The notes beneath the pieces were generated by a model that saw nothing but the letters and a program-made list of their open reading frames with translations, had not been told where the DNA came from and did no database searches. The translations under genes and the position numbers were made by a program. From NCBI GenBank assembly GCA_039795895.1, contig JBDKKW010000002.1, positions 7,347 through 71,346 of the forward strand: a DNA stretch of 64,000 bases. The letters run 5' to 3'. Source of the DNA: Candidatus Parcubacteria bacterium (GTDB lineage: Bacteria > Patescibacteriota > Minisyncoccia > Phycocordibacterales > JBAYGS01). Shown piece after piece: positions 16,337-47,657 of the stretch (positions are counted from its first letter, which is position 1; every line of letters begins with the position of its first letter).

Positions 16337-16900
16337 TTAAGGATTCCACGGGTCCCTTCTCGGATCCTCACACATCTCCCATTTACCAGAGACATCCTGT
16401 CGCTGGAAATGGAACTTGTGAGTAATCTCTCCGTAAGTCATCTTTTTCGGAAACGGATCCTTCTCTTTGACCCACGGGATCGGATGCTTCGCCTGCAAAG
16501 CTTCGAGTCGCATTGGTTCACACACCACTTCGTCTGTCGTGGTACGACGCCCACCCTCAAACACAGACATCACGACGCGATAGAGTGTATCGGAAGAGAC
16601 TCCTGCGAGACCTAGAGCTTTGTCGTATTCGTCGGCAAATCCCCACGGCTGAGCAATTGGGCCCCGGTTATTGCGATTCATCCGAAACCGAATAGATTCT
16701 CCGAGAATCGGTATACGCCCAACAAGAGGCTTTCCAAAGACCACCACCCCGCTACGACACTCGATATGGTGTCCATCTCGCCCACTAAAATAAATATCGT
16801 AGGGCAACGCAATGTCCGGCTCATAGTGAGCAAAGCAGTAGAAATAGCCACTGCCAGACGGTGGCATTTTTGGCACCGCAACAACTTTTGCAATTTCCAT
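16337..16900 (-). CDS. Hypothetical protein (188 aa) downstream of tRNA-Ala
   Basis: The ORF-track N-terminus (to 17107) is a read-through of the tRNA gene. The likely start is MEIAKVV at 16900. No recognised motif. Confidence 0.5.
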   Translation of the reverse strand: MEIAKVVAVPKMPPSGSGYFYCFAHYEPDIALPYDIYFSGRDGHHIECRSGVVVFGKPLVGRIPILGESIRFRMNRNNRGPIAQPWGFADEYDKALGLAGVSSDTLYRVVMSVFEGGRRTTTDEVVCEPMRLEALQAKHPIPWVKEKDPFPKKMTYGEITHKFHFQRQDVSGKWEMCEDPRRDPWNP

Positions 16901-16997
16901 AAGAACAATCCCCCTTTCTGTCACAGCGTGACCTGGTTGGTTTCTGGCACTACTGTATAGGTTTTGGAGAGGAATGCAAGGAAAAAATTCAATCGGG

Positions 16998-17070
16998 TGG
17001 ACCATACCGGATTCGAACCGGTTGCCTCTTCCATGCCATGGAAGCGCTCTACCAAGTGAGCTAATGGCCC
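16998..17070 (-). tRNA. tRNA-Ala (anticodon GGC)
   Basis: Cloverleaf reconstructed by hand: acceptor GGGCCAT/ATGGTCC with the G3:U70 Ala identity pair, anticodon loop ATGGCAT, and T-arm GGTTCGAATCC. CCA is not encoded. Confidence 0.85.
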
Positions 17071-17150
17071 GTGTGACATATTGTACTTGAAAACAGTGAC
17101 CAAACAACTAGTTGCTTTTTAGTTTAAATCAGGTAAGATACTTTGGTATT

Positions 17151-17223
17151 GGGCCCTTAGCTCATCTGGTAGAGCACCTCATTTGCAATGAGGGGGTGGC
17201 AGGTTCGAGTCCTGTAGGGTCCA
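17151..17223 (+). tRNA. tRNA-Ala (anticodon TGC)
   Basis: GGGCCCTTAGCTCATCTGGTAGAGCACCTCATTTGCAATGAGG...GGTTCGAGTCC...AGGGTCCA; G3:U70 present; divergent from the GGC isoacceptor 80 nt away. Confidence 0.85.
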
Positions 17224-17231
17224 CCGAACAG

Positions 17232-17490: not shown

Positions 17491-18453
17491 CTAAAGACCT
17501 GAAATTTCCCGGAGTTTACTCCATTCCTCGAATAGGCTTCTTTTGTCTGGCCGTAGTCCCACATAATGACTTATCTGTCCCGACACTCTATCAACAACCT
17601 GTCCAAGTGTAAGATTTGGGTAATGCTGTCTCCTAAAATCCCTAATACCGATAATTCCACAGATGTATACCGCCTTTTCTACCTCTTCTCTTTTTTGCTT
17701 GATGAGATTTGGCTTTTTATTTACGACAGTCTTTGTCACCGTCTGCCTTTCTGATTGATTGACGGGATTGTCTTCATCTTTATGCACAGTAAAACCATCT
17801 CTTTCAAAGAGTTTCTTTATGTAGTTACAGATTGAAGCATTGATGGTGCTATTACCAGACACAGTAAGATCGTCGATCCAAAAACTATGTTTGAATCCAA
17901 ACTTTTTCAAGAATCCCTGGAGCCTTCTGTCCGTTTTGCCCAAAACTAAAACTGAAACGAGTGGACTTGTTTTGAAACCTTGTGGCAAGTGACCTTCTGC
18001 AGTGACCAAATCTCTGATCATGTTCGCAACATCAGGCTGACATCCCAGATCTCGGAAAGTAAAGAATACTTTCTCTGGTTTTACAGAGGGAAAGAATCTC
18101 TTTATGTCGAATACGGCAATGTTCTTTTTATTACTATGGATTTGTGCGTGAGAAGACAGGGAACGACCTTTTATCGCACCTTGAAACTGAACCGGAATGT
18201 CGAGCCGATATAATAAATTCTTGAGAAGTTTAGCGTGTATAGCCTCAAGTTCCGGACTTGCTTGATAGAAGTCTCTCGACTTTCCTTTTTTATCCTGCCA
18301 TGTTCGCTTGGTGTAATGTTTATCTTTTTCTTTTAGTATTGCTTCGATAACGTCCAAAGGAACCCCGATCTGGTGGGCTAATTCTTTTGTTCTATTTATC
18401 TTCAATGATTCAAGCGTTTTTTTCATCAGCAAGAAGCATTGTTTCAAACTCAC
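17491..18453 (-). CDS. Reverse transcriptase, retron-type
   Basis: 320 aa. RT motifs run in the expected order: FDIKRFFPSV (motif 2/A), LPQGFKTSPLVS (QGxxxSP), and FWIDDLTVS (YxDD-like, close to the retron Ec86 YADDLTLS). The retron-specific block KGRSLSSHAQIH matches GxSxxxNAxxH, and a VTK(TVVN) stretch sits where the retron VTG motif lies. Confidence 0.85.
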   Translation of the reverse strand: MSLKQCFLLMKKTLESLKINRTKELAHQIGVPLDVIEAILKEKDKHYTKRTWQDKKGKSRDFYQASPELEAIHAKLLKNLLYRLDIPVQFQGAIKGRSLSSHAQIHSNKKNIAVFDIKRFFPSVKPEKVFFTFRDLGCQPDVANMIRDLVTAEGHLPQGFKTSPLVSVLVLGKTDRRLQGFLKKFGFKHSFWIDDLTVSGNSTINASICNYIKKLFERDGFTVHKDEDNPVNQSERQTVTKTVVNKKPNLIKQKREEVEKAVYICGIIGIRDFRRQHYPNLTLGQVVDRVSGQISHYVGLRPDKRSLFEEWSKLREISGL

Positions 18454-18736
18454 TCACAATATCATTCAACTTCTTGCGAACAATTTTGTCGTTTCTAGTT
18501 TTTCCATGAGGAATAAGAATATCTTTTGCCAAAATTAGGATAGGAAAATCGTACTCCTTTGATATTTTCTTGAGAAGAGGCATTCCTGGTTTCTTTGCTC
18601 CATTCTCAATAAGAGAAATGTAGTTAGCAGAAACACCAAGACTCTTCGCAATTTGTTCTTGCGACAAGCCTTGTTTAATTCTTATTTTTTTAATTGTGTT
18701 TCCGATTTCTTTCATAAACGTCTTGATAACTGGCAC
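18410..18736 (-). CDS. XRE-family helix-turn-helix protein, translationally coupled to the RT
   Basis: QGLSQEQIAKSLGVSANYISLIENG helix-turn-helix. The 3' end overlaps the RT start by 44 nt. Confidence 0.8.
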   Translation of the reverse strand: MPVIKTFMKEIGNTIKKIRIKQGLSQEQIAKSLGVSANYISLIENGAKKPGMPLLKKISKEYDFPILILAKDILIPHGKTRNDKIVRKKLNDIVSEFETMLLADEKNA

Positions 18737-18769
18737 CGAAAATTACCGATAATTCAGTTGCTTTCGGTG

Positions 18770-19015
18770 CTAGTTGGTCTTGGTCATGTGCCTGATTACT
18801 TCGGTGGCAAGTGAGAGGAGATATGGGAGAACCTTATCGACATAATGTCGAGTCAGACTCTTCTTTTTATCTTTCTCAATGGCCTCCTCGTAAAGAGCGC
18901 GTGTACGTACCAACAAGCCTGCGAGCGCCTTGCAGCGCTTGCAGTGTGGTGAAGGTTGCCATTTTTTGAGAGCAATGGTCAGCTCTTCGTACATCTTATT
19001 CTCGTAATGAGACAT
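18770..19015 (-). CDS. Small hypothetical protein (81 aa) at the head of the RT operon
   Basis: Same strand as the RT, 33 nt upstream of the helix-turn-helix gene, with a CKRCK motif. It could instead be non-coding. Confidence 0.35.
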   Translation of the reverse strand: MSHYENKMYEELTIALKKWQPSPHCKRCKALAGLLVRTRALYEEAIEKDKKKSLTRHYVDKVLPYLLSLATEVIRHMTKTN

Positions 19016-19189
19016 ATTTTTGAATGTTTAGGGACGTGCCGAGTTTCAGACATGACAGTCATTCAGACTTCCTAGCGGCTAATAATAATACCGGTACATT
19101 CAAGCGACAACAAAAACTAAACAGGCCGCGGGTTCCTAACCTTACACCTAAAATCATCCACGGCCTGCTAGCTTTCGCTGGGCCTGACT

Positions 19190-19330
19190 GCACCGATTGA
19201 CAGATGAGCAGTATGATGACTGATATGCATGCTGGATGCTTCGTCGTGTCTGTCGTCATGTGCTTAAGCACATTGCGACATGCACGAGACAGCTAGCAGC
19301 GTGCATCATGGTCATGTTGGTGGGTGGGAC
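19190..19330 (-). ncRNA. Candidate retron non-coding RNA (msr/msd-like long imperfect hairpin)
   Basis: About 95-nt imperfect palindrome centred on catgtgcttaagcacatg; the arms match at about 75% when folded by eye. It lies in a 540-bp non-coding region upstream of the RT operon. Confidence 0.4.
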
Positions 19331-19584
19331 TGACGTCCAAAGACGTTATGGAAAAATCCATAAAAAGGCATTTCTGCCTGTTGTTAGGGCGGCTTGTATT
19401 CAAACCTTCACTTTTTACGTTGATGACAAGGTGCTAGGAGAGTCAAAGACTTTCCAGAGGAGCGAACTCCTCCGCTATCCATTATTTCAAACTCTAACTT
19501 TTTGTCAATGCCCTAAAAGTGTATAAGGTACTAACAACCCCACGTCACTCCTGAAGCAAAAGGACTTCTGTACAATATAAATTC

Positions 19585-19611
19585 AAAACCCCGCCAACTT
19601 CGTTGGCGGGG
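19585..19611 (-). terminator. Rho-independent terminator for the ddl/small-ORF transcript
   Basis: ccccgccaacttcgttggcgggg with a T-run on the minus strand. Confidence 0.65.
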
Positions 19612-19616
19612 TGATC

Positions 19617-46905: not shown

Positions 46906-47036
46906 ATTTTTAATACTAATCTCTTTAGGCCCAAATATGCAAGCTTTCGCAAGAATTGATTGTACGAATTGCAGTTAAGATGTTAAACTTTACAATACAA
47001 CTGAATATGGCCTAACCCGTTGATTTTATCAACGGT

Positions 47037-47657
47037 ATGGCAATCAAAAGTCCTGGAAAGACACAAAAACCCCGTCATGGGTGTTGTCTTTCCAGGCCGT
47101 ATTGGGAAACTGGTACGCTCGGCGAAAGCCGAGGCCCCGTGGCGGGATTTTTGTGTACCTCACGGGTTTATCCATTAAAGATAAACCTCATGCAAGAACG
47201 CATTTTAAAAAAGGAGGACAAGCTCGTTTATTGGGCAGGCATCTTAAATCCTAAAAAAGGAAGTCTCGTATTAACGAATAATCGGCTTTATTTCACAGTA
47301 GATAACAAGGAGCTATTCTCTATTCTACTTAGCAATGTTTTGAGTGTGAATTGTCAAAAAGGAATTGGCACCAGTAATGAAAATATGTTCGTGATCTACA
47401 AAGATGGCGACAAAGAAAAGAAGGTCAAAATACAGCACAGTTCACTCATGTCTCTTGCCACTGTTGGTAATCTATCTCGAATTAGTGCTTCCTATTTCTC
47501 CTCATGGGAGCAGGCTATCAACTCAGCACGCTCAGGCAATCAGGACAACGAAAAAGGCTCGATAGATGATTTAGAGAGACTCTCAGAACTTAAAAAGAAA
47601 GGTATTTTAACTGAGGAAGAATTTTCTGCAAAAAAGAAGCAGATACTTGGCATATAA
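47037..47657 (+). CDS. SHOCT-domain protein with N-terminal PH/GRAM-like domain
   Basis: C-terminal LSELKKKGILTEEEFSAKKKQILGI matches the SHOCT motif. The likely true start is MQERIL at about 47190, since the upstream part of the ORF is a structured leader. Confidence 0.6.
   Translation: MAIKSPGKTQKPRHGCCLSRPYWETGTLGESRGPVAGFLCTSRVYPLKINLMQERILKKEDKLVYWAGILNPKKGSLVLTNNRLYFTVDNKELFSILLSNVLSVNCQKGIGTSNENMFVIYKDGDKEKKVKIQHSSLMSLATVGNLSRISASYFSSWEQAINSARSGNQDNEKGSIDDLERLSELKKKGILTEEEFSAKKKQILGI

Follow-up and report, generated by a model that had tools for sequence, protein, structure and literature searches.

What is the function of a long imperfect hairpin located upstream of a reverse transcriptase (RT) operon in the genome of a Candidatus Parcubacteria bacterium? 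The hairpin lies in a contiguous stretch of 64,000 nucleotides (hereafter the window), where the first-pass annotation, made from the sequence without database searches, had noticed it within positions 19190-19330 and had proposed that it could be the msd stem of a retron, that is, the template of its msDNA. Two competing readings had been named at the same time, a promoter and the terminal inverted repeat of an insertion element.

The question bears on a retron type that was for long the one without a recognised non-coding RNA. No ncRNA was found in the original classification of Type VI (Mestre et al., 2020), and the RNA has been described since late 2025, in two proteobacterial lineages only, the control logic of which is seemingly different. 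In Vpa2, the hybrid RNA comprises the msr-msd and the coding sequence of a small protein (SP), and its 3' end folds back to pair with the non-coding arm. The Vpa2 msDNA, 63-86 nt in length, was mapped to a long stem-loop; it is repressed by the HTH protein and is required to derepress the translation of SP (Zhang et al., 10.1101/2025.10.22.683967). In Sen3, a long stem-loop whose centre is not conserved is found in the ncRNA, upstream of SP, and is proposed to be the DNA stem-loop. A first inverted repeat (IR1) is found at the 3' end of this stem-loop, a second one (IR2) after the SP stop codon, and the ssDNA is constitutive (Garcia-Rodriguez et al., 10.64898/2026.04.27.721009). Under standard conditions, no msDNA could be detected in E. 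coli for the Type VI retrons tested so far, including one from Levybacteria (CPR).

A Type VI Retron Module in a CPR Bacterium

The hairpin belongs to a compact 2-kb module of the minus strand (19510..17491), in which a sigma-70 promoter and a structured leader of ~460 nt precede the genes of SP, of an HTH protein and of the RT (Table 1). The RT carries the Pfam domain RVT_1 and is 100% identical to a protein from a Candidatus Parcubacteria MAG. After RT_VI, its next PADLOC model is RT_III-A (3.4e-52); the assignment of the RT and of the HTH protein to Type VI is one by best profile scores (PADLOC). Among solved structures, its nearest relatives are all retron RTs, with that of Ec86 as the best one (2.7e-20). 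The catalytic DD is kept within a WIDD motif, which aligns with the YADD of Ec86.

Type VI retrons have been described as having, canonically, the order SP-HTH-RT and an overlapping HTH gene. The same gene order is observed here, and the end of the HTH gene (18410) overlaps the start of the RT gene (18426) by 17 nt. Homologues of the HTH protein are called at 101 aa. Two features of the type (Mestre et al., 2020) are found at the locus, namely an RT that scores as Type VI and a gene for a Cro/C1-type HTH protein that overlaps the RT gene. The SP shows a conserved P-x-x-x-C-K-x-C motif, has no match in Pfam, PADLOC or PDB, and is presumed to be the toxic effector of the retron. As judged from its sequence, the operon is a Type VI retron, an anti-phage reverse-transcriptase system. 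The locus is a CPR-borne example of the recently described Type VI retrons and not a new kind of element; from the viewpoint of annotation, it is an unremarkable, if well-preserved, component of a defence island.

Two features of the RT sequence can be mentioned aside. Residues 173-177 read F-W-I-D-D, as compared to Y-A-D-D in Ec86, with a W that is invariant in 20 aligned relatives (alignment A2), and the retron VTG motif is VTK in the window family.

Table 1. Features of the retron module, in the order of the minus strand; positions are those of the window.
Feature	Position	Strand	Basis and remarks
ddl intrinsic terminator	19612..19588		11 bp + T-run
Retron promoter, TTGACA + 16 nt + AATAAT, TG extension	19481..19508	-	Scan, 11/12 matches; homology with all related loci starts here
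SL1, 5' stem-loop at transcription start	19473..19457	-	Alifold consensus of close family
SL2, 5' stem-loop	19455..19437	-	Alifold consensus of close family; covaries in L013
P1 5' strand, candidate a1 + branching G	19418..19434	-	Helix I GCACCUU (19434..19428), G19427, helix II UCAUCAACG
SL3	19378..19367	-	MFE + alifold, all lineages
SL4	19361..19348	-	MFE + alifold, all lineages
SL5	19346..19333	-	MFE + alifold, all lineages
Hairpin A, 100-nt imperfect stem-loop, candidate msd (msDNA template)	19216..19315	-	Folding, inverted repeat, compensatory pairs
IR1, 5' base of hairpin B, UCGGUGC	19196..19190	-	Complementary to IR2
Hairpin B, ~105-nt stem-loop, large apical loop, sequence conserved	19092..19196	-	27 consensus pairs
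P1 3' strand, candidate a2, top and loop of hairpin B	19162..19144	-	CGUGGAUGAU-UUU-AGGUGU
SP (small protein) gene, 81 aa	18770..19015	-	78-81-aa ORF at the same place in 13/13 loci
IR2, CUAGCACCGA, includes SP stop codon UAG	18773..18764	-	Complementary to IR1
Terminal hairpin between SP and HTH	18728..18775	-	Arms 18728-18741 / 18762-18775, 93% complementary
HTH protein gene, 101 aa from ATG at 18715	18410..18715	-	PADLOC HTH_VI 5.6e-19; Pfam HTH_3 3.7e-15
Retron reverse transcriptase gene, 311 aa	17491..18426	-	PADLOC RT_VI 4.7e-60 (201 bits)

The Leader Is Inherited With the Retron Genes

A protein search with the RT returned relatives at 86, 81, 78 and 73% identity, followed by a tail at 50% or less. 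Their contigs were retrieved, and metagenome and genome collections were scanned for further loci. Homologous SP, HTH and RT genes were found together in 12 further loci (L001, L011, L012, L013, L014, L015, L094, L147, L148, L149, L152, and L153), one of which is a Moraniibacteriota MAG. The flanking genes differ in all of them. In the alignment, the homology between loci starts exactly at the -35 hexamer (position 1-2 of the model with nhmmer) and stops at the stop codon of the RT gene. These borders show that the moving unit is made of the promoter, the ~460-nt leader, SP, HTH and RT (19510..17491). Some neighbouring genes are consistent with mobile or defence-island contexts: a serine recombinase (L153, 1-1180), an Mrr-type restriction endonuclease (L152, 2127-3047), and a gene resembling those of phage packaging proteins (L013, 3996-4475).

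The large non-coding gap that had been described on the side of the RT operon is real, and so is the terminator said to insulate it from ddl (Table 1). Transcription of the retron is predicted to start near 19475. The -10 hexamer reads AATAAT, GATAAT, GAGAAT, TATAAT, or TAGAGT, depending on the locus, a variation as expected of a promoter. The -35 region and the spacer form an imperfect palindrome, CTTTGAC-AAAAA-GTTAGAG (19486-19510), which is near-invariant across loci whose RTs are 42-50% identical. This conservation exceeds what a promoter alone needs, and the retron HTH protein may have its operator in this palindrome.

Beyond these loci, nhmmer searches with the leader gave nothing significant, either against other HTH-RT loci (RTs of 37-42% identity, no SP homologue) or against the published Vpa2 and Levybacteria ncRNAs. 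In Rfam, the leader matched no family at the gathering thresholds, nor at E <= 5 on 18650-19560.

Hairpin A Is a Long Stem-Loop Maintained by Compensatory Changes

Folding of the minus-strand transcript, one of the checks proposed at the outset together with a search for compensatory changes in homologous loci, yields for 19170-19340 a single long hairpin (-59.6 kcal/mol, z = -3.64) that none of 200 dinucleotide shuffles matched. A long imperfect hairpin upstream of the RT operon does therefore exist. It is called hairpin A here, and its 100 nt are entirely enclosed in the span initially delimited. The repeat finder describes it as two arms of 50 nt (19216-19265 and 19266-19315), 70% complementary and without a spacer, which amends an earlier estimate of roughly 75% over about 45 nt per arm. 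Its centre is a perfect 16-nt palindrome, atgtgcttaagcacat; the central 18-mer quoted by the first-pass annotation has one end wrong by one base. The plus strand of the region also folds (-72.8 kcal/mol, z = -3.42). As DNA, both senses fold as well (z = -3.3 and -3.8), the cDNA sense reaching -27.2 kcal/mol (z = -3.3).

Strand asymmetry was considered as a clue to a function as RNA or as cDNA. In the window family, the RNA sense of hairpin A has no G-U pairs, as against 5-6 in the complement, which folds better. No asymmetry is seen in L013, and the opposite one is seen in L094; this clue, being inconsistent among relatives, gave no answer.

Could hairpin A be foreign to the retron, as the remnant of an IS or MITE inverted repeat, as part of a small plus-strand ORF (19236-19526, 96 aa), or as an antisense RNA? 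The even better fold of the plus strand would suit such an origin, and the gene calls of some metagenome contigs include an opposite-strand ORF (e.g., 71 aa at 1902-2117 of L001, minus strand). However, the folding advantage of the plus strand is due to the G-U pairs and does not hold across relatives. The best candidate for a plus-strand promoter scores 9/12, none being convincing. Moreover, the indels of L013 across the plus-strand ORF are not multiples of three, and the opposite-strand ORFs over the ncRNA are thus probably annotation artefacts. Finally, no transposase is present nearby, and the hairpin always accompanies the retron, at a constant place in the module across unrelated contexts, which speaks against the terminal repeat of an insertion element that had been envisaged. 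An origin outside the retron is therefore extremely improbable.

Hairpin A and the linker that follows it are the least conserved segments of the module. With respect to L013, whose RT is 73% identical, the identity is 55% in hairpin A (with 11 gap columns) and 26% in the linker, and it amounts to 94% in the 5' strand of the long-range helix P1 described below, 81% in hairpin B, and 72% in the SP coding sequence. At the same place, L013 has an even better hairpin (~95 nt, -44.5 kcal/mol). RNAalifold, run on a sequence-only alignment including L013, finds 35 pairs, 8 of which are changed on both sides. Such compensatory pairs number 2.2 +/- 1.2 in shuffles (0/500 reaching 8) and 0-1 in slid controls, and 95.3% of the alignment cells of hairpin A are paired. 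Sequence comparison thus indicates that hairpin A is maintained by compensatory change. It should be noted that all these changes come from one divergent lineage, L013, the four other close sequences being nearly identical, so that the evidence is good but of limited depth. Among the more distant loci, the region matching hairpin A is unalignable and covers 89-167 nt, with z from -0.8 to -5.0. It folds as a long hairpin in L147 and as a branched structure in L094, L149, and L152; the structure is weak in L015, L148, and L153 (z = -0.8 to -1.5).

This variability also bears on the idea that hairpin A is a terminator or attenuator, or part of a promoter or operator controlling the retron operon. 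Such a role could be thought of for an element placed between the promoter and the first gene, since RNA polymerase can pause or terminate at a big hairpin of a 5' leader, and the HTH protein presumably needs an operator somewhere. An operator or a terminator would, however, keep its sequence, whereas hairpin A is among the most variable segments of the module. Furthermore, the promoter is 165 nt upstream of hairpin A, which disposes of the promoter reading named at the outset. The hairpin is not followed by a T-run and was not called by the terminator scan, in line with the earlier remark that such a stem is unusual for a terminator. The invariant imperfect palindrome overlapping the -35 hexamer is a better candidate for the operator. 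A role of hairpin A in transcription control consequently appears very unlikely.

Architecture of the Leader RNA

Individual and consensus folds reveal a plan common to all lineages. Two 5' stem-loops, SL1 and SL2, are followed by a GCACYUUG element, three short stem-loops (SL3 to SL5), the variable region, hairpin B and, finally, SP. In L013, SL2 covaries (GUC/GAC to GCC/GGC). SL3, SL4, and SL5 occupy equivalent positions in all lineages with different sequences, and are in this respect msr-like. Hairpin A thus lies on the strand of the RT, within the ncRNA and 3' of three short msr-like stem-loops, where an msd is looked for. Taken together, these data make it very probable that hairpin A is an element of a Type VI retron leader RNA. 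They also support its candidacy as an msd stem, as first put forward: the operon is that of a Type VI retron, the hairpin is on the strand of the RT, the leader is inherited with the retron, and the hairpin covaries, with reverse transcription itself suggested by analogy. Of the checks proposed at the outset, folding and the comparison of homologous loci were both favourable.

Downstream of the variable region, hairpin B is closed by 27 consensus pairs, 13 of which show compensatory changes (10 sequences). Individual folds of this hairpin range from -48 to -58 kcal/mol, and ~70 nt separate it from the start of SP. A pairing of its 3' arm with the translation-initiation region of SP, which would have made it a riboswitch-like repressor, seemed persuasive on visual inspection of several lineages but was discarded as not above shuffled controls: the mean energy is -8.2 kcal/mol for cognate and -6.2 kcal/mol for non-cognate pairs, and most loci are inside the shuffle range. 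Likewise, a pairing of the SL2 region with the sequence that follows hairpin B, present in the MFE fold of the window, is not conserved in L013 and was rejected.

SL3 (GGCAGAAAUGCC, about 19366-19379) is followed by a U-run and was scored as terminator-like. The U-run is found in most distant relatives and is absent from L015 and L147. This may point to an attenuator, or to nothing more than a conserved single-stranded motif.

Long-Range Interactions Within the Hybrid RNA

Two long-range interactions are conserved. The first one, P1, associates the GCACYUUG element with the top and the loop of hairpin B, according to the consensus GCACYUU-G-NCAUYNGAC paired with GUCGNAUG-UUUU-AARGUGY. Helix I of P1 is paired in 13/13 loci, four of which have U-A instead of C-G. 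Helix II is shifted by one register in the window family, and G19427 is invariant in the 13 loci (alignment A4). The energies of the P1 duplexes range from -16 to -25 kcal/mol, with a mean of -21.1 kcal/mol for cognate as compared to -16.6 kcal/mol for non-cognate partners. The cognate partner is the best one in 7 of 11 rows; in 3 more, only one non-cognate loop is equal or better, the exception being L015. Together with the stem of hairpin B, P1 forms a pseudoknot. It encloses hairpin A, and its 3' strand is ~65 nt beyond this hairpin, in the loop of hairpin B.

From its sequence, P1 looks like an a1/a2 priming duplex with its branching G. The GCACCUU-G of P1 resembles the a1 of Ec86, which reads GCGCACCCUUA followed by the branching G.

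The second interaction links the 5' base of hairpin B (IR1) to the end of SP (IR2). IR1 occurs as UCGGUGC or CGGUACUAGC, and IR2 as CUAGCACCGA or GCUAGUACCG. The two repeats are complementary in 13/13 loci and covary, CGGUGC/GCACCG in some loci corresponding to CGGUAC/GUACCG in others. Several elements of a Type VI hybrid RNA are thereby present: an ncRNA upstream of SP, a long internal stem-loop, and an inverted repeat to the region of the SP stop codon. By analogy, the RNA of the locus can be considered as a hybrid RNA of the kind described for Vpa2 and Sen3.

In the window family, IR2 is also engaged in a local hairpin (18728-18775), and IR1 (UCGGUGC) recurs in the 3' arm of the latter.

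Comparison With Known Retrons

The ncRNA of Vpa2, as given in a retron census supplement, folds as a1, two short stem-loops, a long stem-loop, a short stem-loop, and a2. As in Vpa2, which is from Vibrio parahaemolyticus, the order is leader RNA, SP, HTH, RT; the leader and the SP coding sequence form one structured RNA, in which the region following SP pairs back to the non-coding part; and short stem-loops precede one long stem-loop inside a long-range helix. Unlike in Vpa2, hairpin B is an additional conserved hairpin, with an a2-like strand in its loop. The leader measures ~460 nt, compared to ~470 nt for the whole Vpa2 hybrid RNA, and hairpin A 100 nt, compared to 63 nt. The RT motif is WIDD instead of YADD, and the host is a CPR bacterium. 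There is no detectable RNA sequence homology to Vpa2, nor to the Levybacteria ncRNAs, and the correspondence is therefore positional. Direct repeats of 7 nt of the Vpa2 type were also looked for. No word shared by the hairpin B loop and the region upstream of SP exceeded the shuffle expectation, in a weak test run without the Vpa2 motif sequence.

The Sen3/cl2075 lineage also has its ncRNA upstream of SP and a 5' stem-loop ahead of the 5' repeat. The long stem-loop with a variable centre is of 92.6 +/- 23.6 nt in the Sen3 lineage, as compared to 89-167 nt here. As in Sen3, IR1 is just 3' of the long stem-loop and pairs with IR2 at the end of SP; unlike in Sen3, however, IR2 contains the stop codon itself. 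The SP family and the host phylum differ, and the ncRNA upstream of SP is ~460 nt long, compared to ~280 nt in Sen3.

With Retron-Eco1/Ec86, the locus shares an ncRNA located upstream of the RT gene on the same strand, with short stem-loops followed by a long imperfect hairpin within a long-range duplex. In contrast with Ec86, an effector gene is inserted between the ncRNA and the RT gene and is part of the same structured RNA. Moreover, the a2-like strand is not at the 3' end of the ncRNA; it is in the loop of another hairpin, forming a pseudoknot, and is separated from hairpin A by ~65 nt. The msDNA at rest is probably not abundant, also unlike that of Ec86.

The locus and its 12 relatives represent a third, deeply divergent lineage (CPR/Patescibacteria), with the same overall plan. 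The cleanly delimited parts and the candidate priming helix lead to testable predictions on the priming site and on the copied stretch.

As a side remark, the published Mestre-729 Levybacteria ncRNA (PMC10849725) ends with ...CUUCGGCACUAGCAAAAAGAAUUAA, which by eye resembles IR1 and the start of hairpin B. The Levybacteria construct that was tested may therefore have had a truncated hairpin B, a possible reason for the lack of RT-DNA.

Function of Hairpin A

Hairpin A can be regarded as a probable msd, since it follows the short stem-loops, is inside P1, is just 5' of IR1, is hypervariable, and matches the place of the long stem-loop of Vpa2. Its position and the analogy with Vpa2 and Sen3 lend this role good inferential support, and we judge it reasonably likely that hairpin A is the msd or the main part of the reverse-transcribed template. 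The promoter of the module (19508..19481) would then give rise to a single structured RNA, containing successively the two 5' stem-loops, GCACCUU-G, the three msr-like stem-loops, hairpin A, hairpin B, and the coding sequence of SP. The stop codon of SP is in an inverted repeat that can pair back to the base of hairpin B. From the homology with Type VI retrons, the RT, together with the HTH protein, would bind the leader RNA and would be primed from the conserved G beside the a1/a2-like duplex. Copying of hairpin A would give an ssDNA corresponding to the plus strand of 19216-19315, itself able to fold into a hairpin. If Vpa2 and Sen3 are a guide, little of this DNA would be present before phage infection, or the HTH protein would restrain it until then. 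The accumulation or state of the ssDNA, or its control by the HTH protein and host nucleases, would then govern the release of the toxic SP upon infection.

Alternatively, hairpin A may be part of the leader RNA without being copied, as a variable spacer or a protein-binding arm, the template being the top and the 5' arm of hairpin B. In P1, the a2-like strand is ~65 nt 3' of hairpin A, within the loop of hairpin B, so that a canonical retron RT would first copy this loop and the 5' arm. Hairpin B matches hairpin A in length, has the more stable fold, and is conserved, 13 of its pairs being compensatory; in three distant loci, the variable region shows weak structure. However, so conserved a sequence is what one typically sees in elements recognised by proteins or RNAs, and not in msd stems, and the 5' arm of hairpin B alone would not yield a hairpin DNA. 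In Vpa2 and Sen3, it is the variable long stem-loop that is implicated as the template. In addition, a long perfect stem has been kept in L013 despite a 45% change in sequence, a selection that would have to be explained. A template restricted to hairpin B is thus a possible but unlikely reading.

Within the preferred reading, where hairpin A is the msd, a less certain point is the site of priming. If helix I is a1/a2 and G19427 the branch, copying would start in the loop of hairpin B and reach hairpin A after ~65 nt. These ~65 nt, made of the linker and of the 5' arm of hairpin B, would come before hairpin A, and the RT might then stop short of it. One can go further and imagine, from the sequence, that in this Type VI lineage P1 is what really primes, that G19427 is the branching nucleotide, and that the template is composite, beginning in the loop of hairpin B and continuing along its 5' arm and the linker up into hairpin A, the whole behaving as a cis-acting RNA switch. 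This proposal is tentative and rather doubtful. If it were true, reverse transcription would have to unzip hairpin B, whose base, IR1, alternatively pairs with IR2, and the switch would physically tie the synthesis of DNA to a change in the fold of the effector mRNA. A 40-bp stem would lock the start of the template, which would explain why little Type VI msDNA is present at rest.

Surroundings of the Module

The module is flanked by the ddl terminator on one side and by two tRNA-Ala genes on the other. The latter are convergent (16996-17070, minus strand, and 17151-17225, plus strand), have the anticodons GGC and UGC, and are found ~270 nt past the stop codon of the RT gene. A 256-aa ORF (16337..17107) overlaps a tRNA gene and is probably spurious. 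Elsewhere in the window, a LOOT RNA (Rfam RF03000) is found at 47009-47133 on the plus strand, with 84.4 bits for a gathering score of 46.4.
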